Positions 10,957 to 18,921 of a stretch of DNA of 18,921 bases are shown piece by piece. The DNA comes from a virus. Within the stretch, counting starts at the first letter, position 1, and each line of letters starts with the position of its first letter. A program made the position numbers and the translations under genes. A model generated the notes under the pieces. It had not been told where the DNA came from. It was given only the letters and a program-made list of their open reading frames with translations, and searched no databases. The DNA lies in the IMG/VR virus record IMGVR_UViG_3300045988_049202, positions 1 to 18,921 of that record. One strand, written 5' to 3'.

Positions 10957-10996
10957 CAAAAAAATAAGGGGAGTGTTTCACGTGAAACACTCCCCT
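10957..10996 (-). terminator. Strong rho-independent terminator after the capsid gene
   Basis: A perfect 32-nt palindrome AAGGGGAGTGTTTCACGTGAAACACTCCCCTT (10965-10996) is followed on the minus strand by AUUUUUUUG (complement of 10956-10964). Confidence 0.85.
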
Positions 10997-11007
10997 TTAT
11001 TGTATCA

Positions 11008-12735
11008 CTAGGATACTGTCACCTGCTTCTTGCCGGATACGCCGAACAGCGTGGCGGTGATATCAGAGGTGCCTGTCTTGACGCCCTTGACCACACCCGA
11101 CTCGGACACCGTGGCGTTGGCCGGGGTGCCTGATGTCCAAGCGGCCTGCATGGTCACGTCGGCGGTTCGCCCGTCAATCATGGTCGCCGTGGCGGTCGCC
11201 TGCACCGATTTACCCACTCCTACATTCGGGACGTTGACGGCAATCGACGCGATAATCGACGGATTGAAGCCGATAACACCCTCGCCAACCACCGGCACGT
11301 CCAGAGCGGCGGATACGGTGCCCGGCACCTCCGGCGTCGCCGGATTCGTATACAAGGCGGTAGCCGTAACCGGGATAGTGGTGTTCGGCTCATCGAGGCC
11401 GACCACCAGTACGCCGGTGGGCGAAATATACGTGTAATCGCTCTTCGGCTTAACGGTGTCTCCGATAGCGTACTCAACCGCGTCCGAACGGAACGTGGCC
11501 GTGCCATCATTGCCGATGGTCGTGTCGGCTGTGACCTGTACCGCGCCGCCACGCGCCACGTTCGACGGGGTGGTCGAGCCACCGCCGTACATGGCGAGTT
11601 TAAGCTGGAAGGTCGGCGTCTTGGCCGTCGTACCGGTAGGAGCCACCACCTTGGCGGTGGAACCCGCGCCCGTCCAGAACATGACGGCGGGGGCGAAACC
11701 AGACACCGAGATAATGTGCTGGACATGCAGATAATGATTGACCGAATTGATATTAACCGGATTGGTCTGCTGGGTCATCTCATTGATAACGGGAATATCG
11801 ATAAGGAATTTATCCGTGGTGAGAATCGCCTGCACGCCATCAATGCCGAACCTGTCCTGCGGGATAACGATGATCCGGTCGATGGTCGGCTCCGCGTCGG
11901 TACGCTGGAACACCGTGGCCAGACCCTGCACGTCAAGCGCCGACTTGACTTCAGGCGAGCAGAACAGTACAAGTTCGTCGGGGCGGGCAAACGTCGGCAT
12001 GTGACGCGCATTATACCGAGTGGACACGAATTTCAGCGTGTCCGCCCAAGCGCGAATCTGGCGCAACATGTCGCGGGCGTCGGTTTCCGTCGAACCCATG
12101 TCGTTAAGGTCGTGCCCCATGTGTACGCGCCAATATCCGCCGAGCTTCGCATACTCGACAAACTGGTGGCACATGGCCTCGAACAAGTCAACCTCGGCGG
12201 CATTGTAGCAGGAGGTGAGAATCTGGGAGGTGAGCGAGGCCAAACCGTTTTCGGAGGTGAAGGCGCGCTGGAGCGTCTTGTCATCCGTGGTCGCCGGGTA
12301 GAAGTGGGCAAAGTCGAGACGATGGTAGAGGCTATCCACGTCGATTTTCCATTTGCGGAAATTGTCCGCGCCCAAGTATTCCGCGTCCGGGTCGTACACC
12401 TGTGCGAGCGGCATACCTACGGCGATTTCCTGCCACGTGTCGCCATACGCCTGAGATGCACGCTGGAACACGCTCAGCGGGTTGTTCCAACGCCACGTGT
12501 TCACGTAGGTTCCGCCGATACGGTTCACCAAGGCCGAATAGAACTCGTTCTTGAGCTGGGTGCTGGACATGAGGGTGGCCATCTGCCTGTCCATGTTCAT
12601 CTGGGTGGCCGAGGGCATACGCCGCTGATATTCGGGGGACGCCTCGTTGCGAATCATGTTGAGGATTTGCGCGTTATTGAATTCGGTGAGCGGGCGAAGC
12701 TGTTGCTTGGGCGTCACCACTGGGGTGGTTGGCAT
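11008..12735 (-). CDS. Major capsid protein with two C-terminal Ig-like (Big_2-type) domains
   Basis: 575 aa counted from ATG 12735, which has SD AGGAAGGA 9 nt upstream. It directly follows the scaffold-like gene and is followed by a strong terminator. The C-terminus ...VQATATATMIDGRTADVTMQAAWTSGTPANATVSESGVVKGVKTGTSDITATLFGVSGKKQVTVS is a typical Big_2 signature; phi29 gp8 also carries an Ig-like domain. Confidence 0.75.
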   Translation of the reverse strand: MPTTPVVTPKQQLRPLTEFNNAQILNMIRNEASPEYQRRMPSATQMNMDRQMATLMSSTQLKNEFYSALVNRIGGTYVNTWRWNNPLSVFQRASQAYGDTWQEIAVGMPLAQVYDPDAEYLGADNFRKWKIDVDSLYHRLDFAHFYPATTDDKTLQRAFTSENGLASLTSQILTSCYNAAEVDLFEAMCHQFVEYAKLGGYWRVHMGHDLNDMGSTETDARDMLRQIRAWADTLKFVSTRYNARHMPTFARPDELVLFCSPEVKSALDVQGLATVFQRTDAEPTIDRIIVIPQDRFGIDGVQAILTTDKFLIDIPVINEMTQQTNPVNINSVNHYLHVQHIISVSGFAPAVMFWTGAGSTAKVVAPTGTTAKTPTFQLKLAMYGGGSTTPSNVARGGAVQVTADTTIGNDGTATFRSDAVEYAIGDTVKPKSDYTYISPTGVLVVGLDEPNTTIPVTATALYTNPATPEVPGTVSAALDVPVVGEGVIGFNPSIIASIAVNVPNVGVGKSVQATATATMIDGRTADVTMQAAWTSGTPANATVSESGVVKGVKTGTSDITATLFGVSGKKQVTVS

Positions 12736-12757
12736 GATAGTTATTCCTTCCTGATTA

Positions 12758-13099
12758 TTAGTCCTCGAATAGGTCATCGAATGTACTGTAAGTACCGTTG
12801 TAGTCATCGTCGGTCATTTCAGCCGATTCCTGCGTCGTATTATCGTCCGGGCCGTCGTTGAGCACGTGGTCGGCGGCGGCGTCGCGCATTGCCTCAATGG
12901 TTTTGGATAGTTCGGCCACGGTCGCTTCCAAGGCGTCCAACCGGTTGGTCATGTCGGCGTCCTTATCGTCGCCCGCGTCCTCCGGTTCGCCATTGTCCTG
13001 CGTTTCAGGCTCCGGGTTCGGCGTATTGTCGCCGGTCGGCTCGGCGTCCGGCTCGGTGTCGGACGTGGTGTCCGGCTCGGTGTTTTCGGTATCGTCCAT
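12758..13099 (-). CDS. Scaffolding protein candidate (highly acidic, short coiled coil)
   Basis: 113 aa counted from ATG 13099, which has SD AAGGGG 5 nt upstream. The protein is very D/E-rich with a central helix-like segment NRLDALEATVAELSKTIEAMRDAAAD. It lies directly upstream of the capsid gene, as phi29 gene 7 does. Confidence 0.55.
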   Translation of the reverse strand: MDDTENTEPDTTSDTEPDAEPTGDNTPNPEPETQDNGEPEDAGDDKDADMTNRLDALEATVAELSKTIEAMRDAAADHVLNDGPDDNTTQESAEMTDDDYNGTYSTFDDLFED

Positions 13100-13286: not shown

Positions 13287-14747
13287 TTATAGCATGAAAA
13301 CATGGCCGTCATCATTGAGATGATGTGACCCCGGCAGGAACTCATCATAGGGGATGGGGGCGGCACGGTGTACGCCACTCAGCCGCATGACGGTATCGCC
13401 GCCCGTTTCCACGCCGCAATATTTGCGATTGCCGAGGATGCGGAGCCTCTCATAGGTGTGGTCGTTTTTCCACGCGCCTAGTTTCCGGTCATCCGTTTCG
13501 ATTCCCATAGGCGTATCCGGCCCTTCCAGTATCATGCCGTCGGTATCGGCGTAGATCACGCGTTCGGCGTTATCGGTCATGGCGCGGGATAGTATTCGCC
13601 TTCCGTAGGCGTTGACATATGCGGCGGTCGGCAACCATGCCAGACTGTTGGCCGACTCGGGTTTGTCCACGGTAAAATCCACACCCCCGTCTACGGACGG
13701 TTTCGGATGCAACATGGGACGGTACAGCGAGGCACCGAACTTCCCTACCAGCGAGTTCAGCAACAGTTTTGCCATCTGCCTGCGTTCTCCGGTTTCTGTT
13801 TGTTTCGCGTGAAACCATTTGTCCACGTATGTGTAGTAGAGTCCGTGTGATTTGCGGAATTTCCAGCCGCCCACGTGCTCCCACACGTGGATGTCGTAGT
13901 TTTCGGTCAGCGTTTCCCAATCCACATCCGTGACCGGCATGGTGACAACGCCCAGCGTACTGTCCAGACGTTCACCCTCATACCCCCATACGGGTAGGAT
14001 ATTGGTGAGTGTCGCCGTTTTTCCCGTTTTCAATCGCGCGTCAAACGCAATGACATCGATATGGAGCGGATAGTCATTGTCATGTTGATACTTCCCGTCG
14101 TACCATATTGGTGAGCCTACCGGCATGGGCGCATCGCGCATGATGCTCGGGTAGAGGCTATTCACGTCCCAGCTTCGGCAATCCCGGTATTCTCCCGGCT
14201 TGCTGTATACTATCGCCCCATAGTAGGCGGGGCGCATACGGTGATAATCATCCCTATCCAATGGTGGAAAATGGCGCTTGAATCCGGCGTAATCCCCATC
14301 GATATAGTCGGTCATCGCCATTGAAGCTATGGTCGTGCCCTTGAGGTTCAGGGCGGTGCATTCCTGCGCGATATTCCACGTGGTCTCCAAGTCATCCGCG
14401 CCGCCGAATGTTTCACGTGAAACATTCAAACCATCGTCGCGCGTGATATTGCGCACGTCCAAAAAATCCACGGTGATACCGCCCATACGCACACGAAAAC
14501 TGTAAAAGTGGCCTCGAATGTTGAACGTGCCCCACACGCCGTCCTTGGCTGGATTCGATTGCAATGGGAGTCGTTTCAGCAATTCGGCGGCTATGGGCTT
14601 GATGTCCTGCCATCCGTGGGCGCACCATACGCGCGTGTGATAATCGAGCATGGTGAGACGGATAACGGCGTTTGCCGTCAATGGTTCCATGCCGTCATCC
14701 GTCAATAGTGTTGCGCCGTCTGTTGCCGCCGTTCGACGCTCTTTCAT
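13287..14747 (-). CDS. Protein-primed family-B DNA polymerase (phi29 gp2 family)
   Basis: 486 aa. Motif A is DVNSLYPS, motif B is KLLLNSLVGKFG, motif C is YADTDG, and KxY is RKY. DGKYQHDNDYPLHIDVI matches phi29 EGKYVWDEDYPLHIQHI. Segments corresponding to TPR1 and TPR2 are present. SD AAGGA precedes ATG 14747. Confidence 0.95.
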   Translation of the reverse strand: MKERRTAATDGATLLTDDGMEPLTANAVIRLTMLDYHTRVWCAHGWQDIKPIAAELLKRLPLQSNPAKDGVWGTFNIRGHFYSFRVRMGGITVDFLDVRNITRDDGLNVSRETFGGADDLETTWNIAQECTALNLKGTTIASMAMTDYIDGDYAGFKRHFPPLDRDDYHRMRPAYYGAIVYSKPGEYRDCRSWDVNSLYPSIMRDAPMPVGSPIWYDGKYQHDNDYPLHIDVIAFDARLKTGKTATLTNILPVWGYEGERLDSTLGVVTMPVTDVDWETLTENYDIHVWEHVGGWKFRKSHGLYYTYVDKWFHAKQTETGERRQMAKLLLNSLVGKFGASLYRPMLHPKPSVDGGVDFTVDKPESANSLAWLPTAAYVNAYGRRILSRAMTDNAERVIYADTDGMILEGPDTPMGIETDDRKLGAWKNDHTYERLRILGNRKYCGVETGGDTVMRLSGVHRAAPIPYDEFLPGSHHLNDDGHVFML

Positions 14748-14759
14748 GATTCCATCCTT

Positions 14760-15704
14760 TTAGTGTCGTGCCGCGTTGGCCATCCATTCATCGAGTCGCG
14801 TCTCTACATCACCCGCGTCCGCCTTCGTCTCCCATTTATGTGTCTTATCATTATACCATGCGGCCTCACGTACTACGGTGCTGAAATTCGTGCTGTTTAT
14901 CAACCATCGTTTTTGACGGTTCGATAGGGAGGCGAATTTTCGGGCGACATTGGCGTCGAATGCTTCAAGTTGCTGTTCGACCCTATCAAAATCCGCAACC
15001 CCCTCGTTCTCGGGAATCTTTCCAGTGCCTGCATGTAATGGCGCGCGTCCTACAAGCCCGGCGTATTCGAGTATCTCCCGTTCAAGTTTCCTCCTGCTTC
15101 CCTCTCGTATCATCATACGCGCGTGGCTCATGCCACGCTCCGACCCAAACACGTTCGCACGGTTGCGCGTGAGTTCGTCACGCGCCGAACCGCCGACCGT
15201 ATGAGTGCCCAACACATCAAACGGCGACTCTCCAGCACGTTCCATCTCTCGCATTTCACCCACGGTATAGTTGGCCATGCTCAATGCGTCGAATTGTTGG
15301 GCGCGTTTGATTTTCCGCCGTGCCTCGATACGGCGGCGCTGTTGCTGTCGTAATGTTTTTCGACGTTTTGACGGGGCGGCGGCGATTTCCGCGTCGGTAA
15401 TCAACGGACGCGCCGCCAGTTCCCTGTCAAGTTTCGTAATATGCACATCCGGGACAACCTGATACGGCTCGTTGTCCCGGGCCCTTAAGGCTTGCTGTTG
15501 TTCCCCGAATTCCTGCCCGATACGGCGTGCAACCTGTTCGAGTTGTTGGGCGCTGAGTTTCCCGAGAAACGTTTCGGTGATTTGCTTGGGGAGGTGTCCG
15601 GTGCTGTAATCCCTGACTGCTTGCTCTCGGCGTACCTGTGCCGACCTGATGGCGGCGTTGCGTTTCAGATTGTTGGCGCGTCGGTTGTTTTTACGTTTTG
15701 CCAC
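14760..15704 (-). CDS. Terminal protein candidate (gp3 analogue)
   Basis: 314 aa counted from GTG 15704, which has SD AGAGGAGG just upstream; the track ORF extension to 15782 runs through a terminator hairpin. It lies immediately upstream of the polymerase, as in phi29. The N-terminus is very basic (AKRKNNRRANNLKRNAAIRSAQVRRE) and there are further R/K-rich helices. The assignment is by synteny, size and composition only. Confidence 0.55.
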   Translation of the reverse strand: MAKRKNNRRANNLKRNAAIRSAQVRREQAVRDYSTGHLPKQITETFLGKLSAQQLEQVARRIGQEFGEQQQALRARDNEPYQVVPDVHITKLDRELAARPLITDAEIAAAPSKRRKTLRQQQRRRIEARRKIKRAQQFDALSMANYTVGEMREMERAGESPFDVLGTHTVGGSARDELTRNRANVFGSERGMSHARMMIREGSRRKLEREILEYAGLVGRAPLHAGTGKIPENEGVADFDRVEQQLEAFDANVARKFASLSNRQKRWLINSTNFSTVVREAAWYNDKTHKWETKADAGDVETRLDEWMANAARH

Positions 15705-15723
15705 GGCCCCTCCTCTTATGAGT

Positions 15724-15766
15724 GTAAAACACCCCCCGCCGTAAGGATGGAAAACGACGGGGGGTG
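15724..15766 (-). terminator. GC-rich intrinsic terminator between SSB-like and terminal-protein genes
   Basis: CACCCCCCGCCGT (15730-15742) pairs with ACGACGGGGGGTG (15754-15766): 9 bp, one mismatch, then 3 bp. On the minus strand it is followed by GUUUUAC (complement of 15724-15730). Confidence 0.6.
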
Positions 15767-15828
15767 AGTCTGGCGGCAACATCCCTATAGGGACATTACC
15801 ATGCTATCATATGACGTGGACATTCACG

Positions 15829-16266
15829 TTACTTGCGCTTGTTTTCCGACACTAGTTCGAGGTCGAAGAACTTATAACCACGGCGGCTCTTCTTCTCCAC
15901 CACCTTGAGAGCAAGCGGCGTAGTCCACGTGTCCGGCGTGCCGAAGATGGCGAACAGGTTGCCGAAAGCGTGCGCCAATGTGGGCGAGGCGGCGGAGAAG
16001 TCGCCCTCCTCCGCGTGAATGACAACACGGGTAGAGGAGTTGATTTCACCCGTCTCCTGATTAGCAACCTCGATAGCCTGAGCAAGCACGTTGGTCACAT
16101 GCAGTGGTTCATTAAGGTGTTCATCAACCTTGTCGGCGGTCTGCATGGCGTTATACAACGCCATTTTACCATCCATAGTAGTGGTATCGAAGAAATGAGA
16201 GACGGCGTTAGCACCGTTCGCCGCAAAATTGTTGCCGTTTGCTACGGTCAGTTCGTTGTCAGCCAT
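15829..16266 (-). CDS. Single-stranded DNA-binding protein candidate (phage SSB family seen in Gram-positive phages; gp5 position)
   Basis: 145 aa. The overall pattern resembles small phage SSB-family proteins as I recall them: N-terminal ...FD...G....YNA, a central V....A.EV.....GE......V.I...G..., and a C-terminal ...G.P..W..PL.L.VV....R.G..F..LEL. Position relative to TP and polymerase matches phi29 gene 5. SD AAGGAAGG precedes ATG 16266. Confidence 0.45.
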   Translation of the reverse strand: MADNELTVANGNNFAANGANAVSHFFDTTTMDGKMALYNAMQTADKVDEHLNEPLHVTNVLAQAIEVANQETGEINSSTRVVIHAEEGDFSAASPTLAHAFGNLFAIFGTPDTWTTPLALKVVEKKSRRGYKFFDLELVSENKRK

Positions 16267-16294: not shown

Positions 16295-16606
16295 TTATTC
16301 TTCCTCGGAGATAATATCATCTTCAACCACGTTGCCGTTGACCGACCCCGGATAGTCGATAATGGTATCATCCCCAAACTTACAATTAGCCCAATAGATT
16401 GCCTCATCCATGCGCGTCGCCTGCGCATGATATTCGGCTGACATGGGGAGCATGTCCTTGTTAATCTTACGGGCTTTTTTCATTGCCATGTCAGCCGTGC
16501 GACACGCGCCATCCACGATCACCTCGGCGTCCACAAGTTCACCGTTTTCGCCGCGCGTAACACCGCGCACAATACTATAGTGCTTGGCTCGCTTAATATA
16601 TGCCAT
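16295..16606 (-). CDS. Double-stranded DNA-binding protein candidate (phi29 p6-like)
   Basis: 103 aa counted from ATG 16606 (SD AGGCGG). Size, the acidic C-terminal tail (VEDDIISEEE) and the position upstream of the SSB-like gene mirror phi29 p6 (about 104 aa, acidic tail). Sequence similarity is only loose. Confidence 0.35.
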   Translation of the reverse strand: MAYIKRAKHYSIVRGVTRGENGELVDAEVIVDGACRTADMAMKKARKINKDMLPMSAEYHAQATRMDEAIYWANCKFGDDTIIDYPGSVNGNVVEDDIISEEE

Positions 16607-16623
16607 AATCATACCGCCTTTTT

Positions 16624-17157
16624 TTAATGTTGCTGTTGCTGTGACATTCTTGCAATGTCCTCATCAGTATACCGTGCGTCGGTCAGATTGTCAAAACGGA
16701 GGCACGCAATTTTGATGATAGTCTGAGCGAACTCATCGCCCTCCCAAGTCCTGCACATCTCATAGCAGGTTGCGCCCTTGACGTGGCAGACCGCGCACCA
16801 CGCCACCATTGCCGGACAGTAAATAAGCCCGGACAACATTTCAACGTCCTGCGTTCGTGATAATGCGGCGTACATTGACGAATGAGGCGAAATGCTTAGA
16901 CAAATGTTCGCCGCGTGTTCGATACTGTCAGCAAACATCACCTGACCACCCTGAGGCTTATAAAAATCCTTGAGCAATGCTATAGCACGGCAAAACGTTT
17001 CCCAATCGCCCTCACCACGGTTATACTCCCGCAAGTGCAGATTACGCCGACGGCCACGAATGACACGGCGCACACGGTCATCGTCCAGCACGCCATCGTC
17101 AAACCAATTGGTAGGCGTCTCATTCGTTTTCCTAGAATTCAGGCTGTTCGTTCCCAT
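16624..17157 (-). CDS. Hypothetical early protein (177 aa, Cys-rich C-terminal half)
   Basis: I chose the start at ATG 17157 (SD GAGGGG 8 nt upstream). The longer track ORF to 17274 would overlap the 17132-17371 gene in another frame. I recognised no motifs. Confidence 0.6.
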   Translation of the reverse strand: MGTNSLNSRKTNETPTNWFDDGVLDDDRVRRVIRGRRRNLHLREYNRGEGDWETFCRAIALLKDFYKPQGGQVMFADSIEHAANICLSISPHSSMYAALSRTQDVEMLSGLIYCPAMVAWCAVCHVKGATCYEMCRTWEGDEFAQTIIKIACLRFDNLTDARYTDEDIARMSQQQQH

Positions 17158-17371
17158 ACCTATACCCCTCACGGTATCCACGTTGATAAGCATCCTCATA
17201 CATCCTATGAATATCACAGGGGAGCGTTTCACGTTCGGGCTTGCCCTCAGCGGCGTCCGATGTGCCACGCTCATACCCCTTCACAGCGGCGATATGAGCG
17301 CCCCACTCAGTCCACAGGTCAAACAGTTGTGCGCAAAGTTCCATAATACTGCTAGGCTCGGCCAATCTCAC
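17132..17371 (-). CDS. Hypothetical small early protein with YxxGYxxGY motif (start uncertain: 17371 GTG, 17365 TTG or 17344 ATG)
   Basis: The ORF is in series with its neighbours. The C-terminus carries YEDAYQRGYREGYRYG. AAGGGG lies 5 nt before TTG 17365. Confidence 0.5.
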   Translation of the reverse strand: MRLAEPSSIMELCAQLFDLWTEWGAHIAAVKGYERGTSDAAEGKPERETLPCDIHRMYEDAYQRGYREGYRYGNEQPEF

Positions 17372-17594
17372 CCCTTACCATCACGTCCGCGACATGCAAA
17401 TCAGTCGAACGCTGTTTACGCTCCGCCACACCCTGCATGTAACCCTCACGGAAACAGTCGCAATAACCGTGAGCACACGCCGCATCCTCCAATGGCCGAG
17501 CAACGTGAGCGGGGAGCGTCAAGCCAGCACGAAATCCCTGCTCATAATACGCGGTACACATCGCCGCGTCCCATGTCATCAGCGTAAAACTCAC
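17352..17594 (-). CDS. Hypothetical small early protein with Yxx G[FY]xxG motifs
   Basis: 80 aa counted from GTG 17594 (SD GGAGG 7 nt upstream). Its start overlaps the upstream stop as GTGA. It contains YYEQGFRAG and FREGYMQG. Confidence 0.55.
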   Translation of the reverse strand: MSFTLMTWDAAMCTAYYEQGFRAGLTLPAHVARPLEDAACAHGYCDCFREGYMQGVAERKQRSTDLHVADVMVRGEIGRA

Positions 17595-18176: not shown

Positions 18177-18430
18177 GCCCATTTCGCCACCACCATTTCC
18201 TTGCCATAAAAACGCTCAGGATGCTCAGAAACAAACCTCATCAAGCGATAAACAAAACCCACCATATTATCCATAGCCGAACAAACCTCACCAGTACAAG
18301 GGTCATACGTTTCAGTAAAAAACCTTACAACCACAAATCTCTTTAAACGATAACGCAAGACAAGAACCTCTCTCCCGTCCAGCTCACGTGTCTCGAAACG
18401 AACAGAAACACCAGTCATATCAACCACCAT
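18173..18430 (-). CDS. Hypothetical first early protein of the right end (85 aa)
   Basis: It follows the right-end promoter. Its SD and the first codons MVVDM lie within the degenerate ITR extension, conserved with the left-end gene (MVVEM). The exact start is uncertain (ATG 18430 or ATG 18418). Confidence 0.6.
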   Translation of the reverse strand: MVVDMTGVSVRFETRELDGREVLVLRYRLKRFVVVRFFTETYDPCTGEVCSAMDNMVGFVYRLMRFVSEHPERFYGKEMVVAKWA

Positions 18431-18458
18431 CCTTCCTTCATCCTTGGCTGATAACTAC

Positions 18459-18487
18459 ATAATACCACACCACAAAACACAACACAA
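18459..18487 (-). promoter_or_regulatory. Right-end early promoter (sigma-70 type) at the ITR boundary
   Basis: Mirror of the left promoter: -35 TTGTGT (18482-18487), 17-nt spacer, TGn, -10 TATTAT (18459-18464). ITR identity ends inside the -10 hexamer, yet both versions stay close to consensus. It heads the minus-strand early gene string. Confidence 0.5.
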
Positions 18488-18523
18488 ACAACAAACCCGG
18501 CAGGCCATCGACCTACCGGGCTT
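18473..18523 (-). terminator. Mirror copy of the ITR hairpin/T-tract in right ITR
   Basis: Exact reverse complement of 399-449. Confidence 0.45.
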
Positions 18524-18642
18524 CAACACACTCATCAAAACAATGCGGCATACACGCTTTTATTGCACCCATTGCACTTAATACACTAACAACACAACTA
18601 CATTTCTTCACTCTCCTATCCTCTAGTTTTTTGTTGATACCC
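18492..18642 (-). ncRNA. Candidate ITR-encoded small RNA, right copy
   Basis: Exact mirror of 280-430 inside the right ITR, oriented inward on the minus strand. Confidence 0.2.
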
Positions 18643-18921
18643 TCAATCTACCACACAAAAAAAAACAAGACACACCCAACAACAGAAAAAAACGACAAAA
18701 AACAGCCCACTCAAACTATAAACAAAACACACACTAAAATCATGAGACAAAACAGCAAGCAAAATTGACAACGGAAAGAAGGCGAATAAAATAGTAAACA
18801 ACAGAGATGATAACAAACGACAGAACAAGAACAGCAATGAAAAACACAGAACAGAGAACAGAGATGAAACACACAACAGAACAGTAGTGGAAAAAAGCTA
18901 ACTGGCAGGGGCCCTCCCCTC

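Follow-up and report, generated by a model that had tools for sequence, protein, structure and literature searches.

The window analysed here, the 18,921-nucleotide stretch that forms virus record IMGVR_UViG_3300045988_049202, is a phi29-like phage genome whose minus strand encodes, at positions 13287–14747, a presumably protein-primed DNA polymerase of family B with 486 amino acids. Polymerases of the phi29 type are the textbook single-subunit replicases, joining priming, processivity, strand displacement and proofreading in one enzyme. In the polymerase of the window, the domain at the N-terminus (residues 1–135; 14343–14747, minus strand) is predicted to keep the RNase-H-like fold of the exonuclease module in ~135 residues, compared with ~190 in canonical members, and its set of catalytic residues is incomplete. 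From this fold, the deletions and substitutions within it, their distribution over one clade of phages and the purifying selection acting on the domain, we infer that proofreading has quite probably been lost, with the domain retained in a scaffolding role.

The polymerase and its reduced N-terminal domain

The polymerase was recognised from the translated reading frame and from Pfam, PDB and Foldseek searches. Pfam family PF03175 matches with E = 5e-35 and 121.7 bits (cut-off 25.8), the match spanning only residues 133–341, and in a phmmer search of the PDB residues 155–443 align with residues 206–500 of phi29 DNA polymerase (E = 1.7e-42). The AlphaFold2 (AF2) model has a predicted local distance difference test score (pLDDT) of 91 and a predicted template modelling score (pTM) of 0.88; Foldseek superposes it on structures of the phi29 enzyme (gp2; 1XHX, 2PYJ, 2PY5) with template modelling (TM) scores of 0.81–0.85, the value being 0.85 for 2PYJ and 1XHX. 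Motifs A (D194-VNSLYP; 14148–14168), B (K327-LLLNSLVGKFG; 13734–13769) and C (Y399-ADTDG, containing D401 and D403; 13536–13553), all on the minus strand, fall in conserved alignment columns: those of motif A are invariant, as are K327, N331 and G335 in motif B and Y399, T402 and D403 in motif C. TPR1 and TPR2 are likewise present in the region colinear with phi29 206–500, where the AF2 strands 208–217/228–239 and 345–350/356–361 match those of P0100, a canonical homologue that was also modelled.

The enzyme is 89 residues shorter than phi29 DNA polymerase, with 55 residues missing before motif A, 32 after the KxY motif and 2 in between. The distance from motif A to the Tyr of KxY is 249 residues, compared with 251 in phi29. 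An initial annotation, made from the sequence alone, had proposed both the colinearity of the polymerisation half and the 55-residue deficit, from the motif-A Asp at D194 rather than D249, and both were borne out. Absent from it were the 32-residue shortening of the thumb and the reading of the KxY motif as R-K-Y (Y443). Beyond R-K-Y443 the thumb comprises 43 residues (444–486; 13290–13418, minus strand) against 75 in phi29, and the strands of its β-hairpin are 3–5 residues long in the AF2 model (452–456, 475–477 and 483–485), compared with 10–11 in P0100 (538–548 and 551–560). In phi29, the thumb assists when the primer terminus passes from one active site to the other, polymerase or exonuclease (PMC1475753), and we speculate that the shortening of the thumb may be coupled to the loss of proofreading.

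The gene starts at an ATG at 14747, preceded by AAGGATGG and situated 12 nt after the upstream gene. A longer reading frame, or an upstream exon, that might carry ExoI was considered and rejected: there is an in-frame stop directly upstream, a Shine–Dalgarno sequence lies before the ATG, and homologues share the same N-terminus, as seen in 82 homologue clusters at 87–95% identity.

The N-terminal domain is modelled with block pLDDT values of 81–95. Its elements are β1 (residues 4–9), β2 (13–16), β3 (19–22), αA (25–31), β4 (37–42), αB (46–59), a hairpin (70–75/81–88), β5 (91–97) and helices at 99–102, 107–114 and 119–132. This is the RNase-H-like order of the DEDDy (DnaQ-like) proofreading domains in family-B polymerases, found also in the AF2 model of P0100 (pLDDT 92), the two proteins sharing β1, β2, β3, αA, β4, αB, hairpin, β5, helix and ExoIII helix in succession. 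In local hhalign, the domain matches a profile of phi29-like N-terminal domains with 96.4% probability. On its own, however, the 135-residue domain gives no Pfam match even at E ≤ 10, whereas that of phi29 reaches PF03175 at 1e-27, and a profile of the short-family domain searched against the PDB returned just a chance match to CheY (E = 0.71). Two further, weak resemblances, both of residues 72–121, were dismissed as chance likenesses of a β-hairpin: one to the β-trefoil ThreeFoil (3PG0, E = 0.016) and one to the LVIVD-repeat proteins P0132 and P0136. The AF2 model contains neither a trefoil nor a propeller.

Exonuclease motifs in register with phi29

The register of the domain was drawn from MAFFT alignments with 21–34 homologues, from local hhalign comparison of the short-family with the canonical N-terminal domains, and from the AF2 models of the window protein and P0100; the residue equivalences that follow are the most probable ones. 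Residues T38-RVWCAHGWQD-I49 correspond to phi29 A56-DLYFHNLKFD-G67, the ExoII strand and the start of the helix after it, in MAFFT and in the local hhalign alignment. Further along, MAFFT places FNIRGHFYSFRVRMG opposite the conserved phi29 hairpin IISRMGQWYMIDICLG.

In phi29 DNA polymerase, D12, E14, D66 and D169 are the ligands of the two metals, and Y165 sets the orientation of the attacking water, K143 having an assisting role (PMC4974454). The ExoI remnant of the window enzyme, T9-D10-G11-A12 (14712–14723, minus strand), has D10 in the position of D12, in an invariant column common to the canonical polymerases, and A12 in the position of E14; the canonical D-x-E is replaced by D10-G-A12 and the Glu is lost. 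D10-G11 is kept in 91 of 91 close homologues, in which position 12 is A, V, T, S or R, and in the AF2 model D10 lies just past β1 in a tight β-turn. The ExoII remnant, H44-G-W-Q-D48 (14604–14618, minus strand), identified by MAFFT and local hhalign, carries the Asp of N-x3-D without the Asn. D48 is equivalent to phi29 D66, and in the two models D48 and the ExoII Asp of P0100 (D71) each lie six residues past the end of β4. The place of phi29 N62 is taken by H44, or by G45, since the placement of a single gap decides whether H44 stands opposite N62 or H61. H44 is the sole His near a canonical position, and it is not conserved beyond the phage's own subclade.

The end of β5 with the segment D97-V-R-N100-I-T-R103 (14439–14459, minus strand) is equivalent in the alignments to phi29 D121-S122-L123-K124. 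Here the (S/T)L pair that binds single-stranded DNA (ssDNA), S122/L123 in phi29, is replaced by V98/R99. Across the short-polymerase clade D97-x-x-N100-[IL]-x-R103 stands for the canonical D-S-x-K-K-L, N100 being invariant and D97 nearly so; the motif may form a clade-specific functional surface, for example one that touches the terminal protein or a different subdomain.

The largest change is at ExoIII, whose remnant runs from F114 to A132 (14352–14408, minus strand) and is marked by a gap of 27–29 columns relative to all canonical polymerases and by a helix in the AF2 model. Four residues (G115–D118) take the place of a loop of ~23 residues bearing the Lys of the Kx2h motif, and the helix is cut to 14 residues (119–132), compared with 163–185 in P0100. 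The Kx2h Lys, a residue specific to family B (phi29 K143), falls inside the gap and is deleted. The Tyr of Y-x3-D, phi29 Y165, is deleted as well, or else is G115: when the sequences are aligned backwards without gaps, starting at the invariant T139/T189, D119 falls on phi29 D169 and G115 on Y165. D119 is the probable equivalent of the ExoIII Asp. Because the Glu, Tyr, Lys and ssDNA ligands are missing, useful proofreading is most likely absent.

The initial annotation had arrived at a different register. It had singled out the interval 14373–14747, which does encode residues 1–125 of the polymerase, and had noted correctly that the domain contains no canonical ExoI DxE, ExoII Nx3D or ExoIII Yx3D. 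Taking the strings RVW(A/C)xG(Y/W) and F(H/-)N as anchors, it read D35-Y-H37-T as ExoI, N76-I-R-G-H80 as ExoII and F114-G-G-A-D118 as the closest match to ExoIII, and proposed that H37 and H80 replace the ExoI Glu and the ExoII Asp, the metal site perhaps having been rebuilt around His ligands. The strings are present at these residues of the translation, and D-Y-H-T-RVW and F-N-I-R-G-H do resemble D-F-E-T...RVW and F-H-N-L-K-F-D. Nevertheless, we regard a His-based site of this kind as barely credible. The RVW anchor is a chance match, as TRVWCAHGWQD is the ExoII strand and helix start and not the strand after ExoI, and in local hhalign the register that follows from the anchor receives 0.2%, against 96.4% for the one adopted here. 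Forced-global hhalign does take the RVW anchor, but in doing so it places ExoI after helix αA, deletes ExoII and clashes with the AF2 secondary structure.

Neither His occupies a ligand position. D35-Y-H37-T (14634–14645, minus strand) comprises a loop and the first residues of β4, upstream of ExoII in model and alignments alike, with D35 in the loop and H37 the first residue of the strand. N76-I-R-G-H80 (14508–14522, minus strand) is the turn between strands 70–75 and 81–88, equivalent to phi29 ~93–98, and G79-H-F-Y-S-F fits the canonical hairpin G-x-F-Y-S-I, an instance of the pattern G-x-[FW]-Y-x-[ILMF] common to all canonical polymerases. Positions 37 (H/N/I/R) and 80 vary among close relatives, and in the wider family neither column is conserved (H/N/I/R/V/M at 37; H/N/V/I/K at 80). 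D118 is T, D, N or S even among relatives at 87–95% identity, and it is D119 that aligns with D169. The best alignment keeps Asp at three of the four carboxylate positions (D10, D48 and D119) and has Ala (A12) in place of the ExoI Glu. The broader suggestion of a reduced, non-canonical exonuclease, probably without proofreading, stands, while substitution by His as its mechanism does not. Matching short strings such as 'RVW' by eye misassigned the residues, and only alignment based on profiles and structure corrected them.

The short-polymerase clade

A profile of the reduced N-terminal domain found just 20 cluster representatives among 1.84 billion proteins. Full-length short polymerases have 464–496 residues, compared with 562–583 for the canonical polymerases of the actinobacterial phages Av-1 (Actinomyces), LE1-1 (Eggerthella), Evcara (Microbacterium) and Prophecy (Curtobacterium); these four and all other canonical relatives retain DFET, HNLxFD, K..DY and Yx3D. 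In a neighbour-joining tree of the polymerase domain only, 19 short representatives form one clade with a bootstrap value of 100, beside the actinobacterial-phage polymerases. Since the short polymerases are monophyletic in a tree from which the reduced domain was left out, the reduction is a single derived event.

The clade takes in the cultured, viable Bifidobacterium phages BD811P1-3, BP1, BadAztec1/2/4 and BadAargau2, whose polymerases (469–483 residues, 34–36% identity to that of the window) share the reduced domain and the gene order. A BFVD model of the BadAztec1 enzyme superposes on the window model with a TM score of 0.87 and a root-mean-square deviation of 2.1. The cultured phages have gone further than the window phage in their degeneration: they have no in-register Asp at ExoII or ExoIII, the ExoIII segment is entirely absent from BD811P and BP1, whereas BadAztec has shorter strands at the N-terminus. 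Their records say only 'DNA polymerase' or 'hypothetical protein', and we found no comment on their exonuclease domain in the literature searched.

The catalytic columns are a mosaic across the 19 representatives, none of which has the full DEDD-Y set. Some members have D-x-E/D at ExoI without the ExoII and ExoIII Asp, and others the reverse. P0128, P0129, P0130 and P0133 belong to the former, with D-x-D/E at ExoI and an in-register Asp at neither ExoII nor ExoIII; the subclade of the window has D10, D48 and D119, with A, V, T, S or R at the Glu position. In other subclades the D48 column holds S, T, I, P, L or V, and the D119 column elsewhere holds D, E, P, V, K, A or N. The sole invariant feature among these columns is D10-G11. 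Because such mosaic columns occur in a clade with viable cultured phages, constraint on catalysis appears to have been relaxed. The mosaic, together with the variation at D118 among close relatives, is the pattern that would be expected after inactivation.

The domain is nevertheless under strong purifying selection; it is functional and is not decaying. The ratio of non-synonymous to synonymous substitution rates (dN/dS) is 0.05–0.18 over residues 1–135 and 0.055–0.076 for the polymerase domain, as determined from pairs of relatives at 87–90% identity only; pairs with P0083, from relative L011, are invalid since an indel offsets the codons. At greater distances the N-terminal domain is the more divergent of the two (32% versus 47% identity), but it is modelled by AF2 with high confidence along its whole length. 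This strong selection points to a retained structural role.

In phi29, the exonuclease domain is part of the tunnel that underlies strand displacement. We propose that the window polymerase serves as replicase to a phi29-like Bifidobacterium podophage that replicates by protein priming. The half of the enzyme responsible for polymerisation is intact in the palm motifs A, B and C, the fingers, TPR1 and TPR2. The exonuclease domain has been trimmed from ~190 to ~135 residues with the RNase-H-like fold kept, and its catalytic set has been left incomplete by the changes of the ExoI Glu to Ala (A12), of the ExoII Asn to His or Gly and of Ser-Leu to Val-Arg, and by a deletion of ~27–29 residues taking out the Kx2h Lys and the ExoIII Tyr. 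Most likely the consequence is an enzyme with no useful proofreading activity, in which the domain may serve as a wall of the downstream-template tunnel for strand displacement and as a contact surface for the terminal protein.

Several observations weigh against this interpretation. For ExoI and ExoIII the register is less secure than for ExoII, as it depends on MAFFT and on the order of secondary structure elements; local hhalign leaves residues 1–23 unaligned and shifts the ExoIII helix by about one turn. Moreover, Asp is present at three of the four carboxylate positions in the window phage and its subclade, and D10-G11 is invariant, so weak or altered exonuclease activity is possible. One can picture a minimal or rewired exonuclease in which D10, D48 and D119, aligned with phi29 D12, D66 and D169, bind metal, H44 replaces the Tyr as general base in the manner of DEDDh enzymes, and another group or water replaces the ExoI Glu. 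The three Asp are kept within the subclade down to ~46–55% identity, D48 in all members and D119 in all but two (E and P), H44 is conserved in 87 of 91, and the purifying selection on the domain would fit as well. However, the Glu position accepts A, V, T, S or R with no conserved acidic residue nearby, and the enzyme lacks the Kx2h Lys, the ExoIII Tyr and the residues that bind ssDNA. In phi29, single substitutions of the ExoI Glu lower exonuclease activity by orders of magnitude. Sister subclades of the same reduced architecture, including the viable cultured phages, do not conserve D48, D119 or H44. The retained residues also fit structural roles, D10-G11 that of a β-turn, D119 at its helix start that of an N-cap, and D48 likewise, as P0095 and P0096 have Ser or Thr in its place. 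On balance we consider a rewired exonuclease unlikely.

A further consideration is that early genes without a detectable function could supply proofreading in trans. Trans-acting proofreading subunits such as DnaQ occur in bacteria, and the early reading frames at 16295–16612 and 16624–17274 and those between 17352 and 18430 have no family match in Pfam or PHROGs. Under such an arrangement a host exonuclease or an uncharacterised early phage protein would correct errors, and the polymerase domain would be dispensable for fidelity. We think this quite improbable: Pfam and PHROGs reveal no exonuclease signature in those reading frames and identify none of the early genes as encoding a helicase or a separate exonuclease, and a processive, DNA-enclosing polymerase of the phi29 type leaves the primer end poorly accessible. 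Proofreading in trans is in any case compatible with loss of the polymerase's own activity and would not contradict it.

Several polymerases are already known in which the exonuclease module has been lost or inactivated. In the protein-primed PolBs of mavirus-like virophages and the pPolB-S1H of polinton-like viruses, either a remnant of the domain is left or none of it, and the loss is coupled to the acquisition of a helicase (PMC11161782). These resemble the window enzyme as protein-primed PolBs with exonuclease loss; they differ from it in belonging to eukaryotic viruses, in lacking most of the domain and in the helicase, whereas the window polymerase keeps the fold and no helicase was detected with it. 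Pol alpha, Pol zeta and archaeal PolB2, whose domain is inactivated (PMC7544198), and the divergent phage PolA divPolA1 (PMC11348598) all keep the exonuclease fold with substituted catalytic residues or missing motifs. Unlike the window enzyme, the only polymerase detected in its genome, these are RNA/DNA-primed or family A and mostly not the sole replicase. What appears to be new is a phi29-type clade with a degenerate, probably inactive and yet conserved domain; the literature searched, which did not cover every journal, contains no description of exonuclease loss in phi29-like tailed phages or in Bifidobacterium phage polymerases.

A clade that has shed the chemistry of proofreading and kept the domain would reveal which parts of the domain are needed for its other functions. 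If proofreading is absent, these phages, whose host is an important bacterium of the infant gut, may have an unusually high mutation rate, which bears on arms races between phage and host and on the interpretation of metagenomic diversity. Tentatively, and with less confidence than we place in the loss itself, a whole lineage of Bifidobacterium tailed phages from human and bee guts might replicate with a naturally proofreading-free, unusually compact (464–496 residues), strand-displacing protein-primed polymerase. Their mutation rate per genome would then lie closer to the rates of ssDNA or RNA viruses and would explain the microdiversity of metagenomes. In a more exotic form of this idea, the retained D10/D48/D119/H44 site would carry out a different metal-dependent reaction. 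Engineering has supplied exonuclease-deficient phi29 polymerases for nanopore sequencing and for sequencing by synthesis (PMC10661337), and a compact enzyme of natural origin could prove useful.

Such microdiversity is marked around the window polymerase. The relatives at 87–95% identity to it fall into 82 separate 90%-identity clusters, some with hundreds to thousands of sequences (2144 in P0007 and 936 in P0002) on near-complete contigs of 17–19 kb, and the synonymous divergence (dS) between relatives at ~87–90% identity is 0.5–1.4. This is compatible with a fast-evolving, abundant phage population and is not evidence for a high mutation rate.

Genome organisation, host and a palindrome within the polymerase gene

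The window is a complete linear genome, as shown by inverted terminal repeats (ITRs) of ~507 bp at its two ends. A repeat search paired positions 1–477 with 18445–18921 at 99% identity over 477 nt, and a further 29 nt at 97% extend the repeats to 507 and 18416, the left ITR occupying 1–507 and the right ITR 18416–18921. Linear genomes with ITRs are shared with phi29, in which the repeat is 6 bp. Nearly all genes lie on the minus strand in a phi29-like order. A gene for a phi29-type single-stranded DNA-binding protein (15829–16266, minus strand; Pfam PF17427, 2.2e-15; phrog_6243) is followed by a 340-residue reading frame directly upstream of the polymerase (14760–15782, minus strand), which synteny suggests to be the terminal protein gene: with this assignment the window would have the order of binding protein, terminal protein and polymerase seen in phi29, Av-1, Evcara and Prophecy. 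The candidate terminal protein has no Pfam family match and nothing significant in PHROGs, its sole match there being to phrog_28145, of unknown function, at a non-significant E = 0.0096. Gene callers give 302–318 residues for it in relatives, and translation probably begins further downstream than the first ATG in the 340-residue frame. The genes after the polymerase are late genes; those of a close relative match Phi29_MCP, phi29_gp9_C and Phage_connector.

Bifidobacterium is the probable host. Among named proteins the closest, at 92% identity, is a 'DNA polymerase [Bifidobacterium breve]' of a metagenome-assembled genome, and the nearest cultured phages, those named above, all infect Bifidobacterium. 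Several long reading frames overlap the capsid and early genes in antisense or in another frame of the same strand, among them 11716–12861 (plus strand), 11220–11726 (minus) and 16970–17587 (plus); these are most likely artefacts of base composition and not genes.

Within the polymerase gene, positions 14406–14427 form a perfect 22-bp palindrome, GAATGTTTCACGTGAAACATTC, which encodes N109-VSRETF115 and has copies at 10971–10992 and 13801–13816. At up to three mismatches there are three matches, against 0.13 expected. The capsid gene is followed by a textbook intrinsic terminator, AAAGGGGAGTGTTTCACGTGAAACACTCCCCTTATTTTTTT (minus strand), whose stem is formed by the core of the palindrome. L011 has the core in the polymerase gene and in the small gene downstream of it, and not after the capsid gene. 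In a second relative, L013, the sequence is GAACGTCTCACGTGAGACGTTC, with four synonymous changes in two mirrored pairs. Because these paired changes leave the palindrome perfect, they suggest selection at the nucleic-acid level, and the element may act as an operator, mark a processing site or fold into a hairpin when its strand is displaced.

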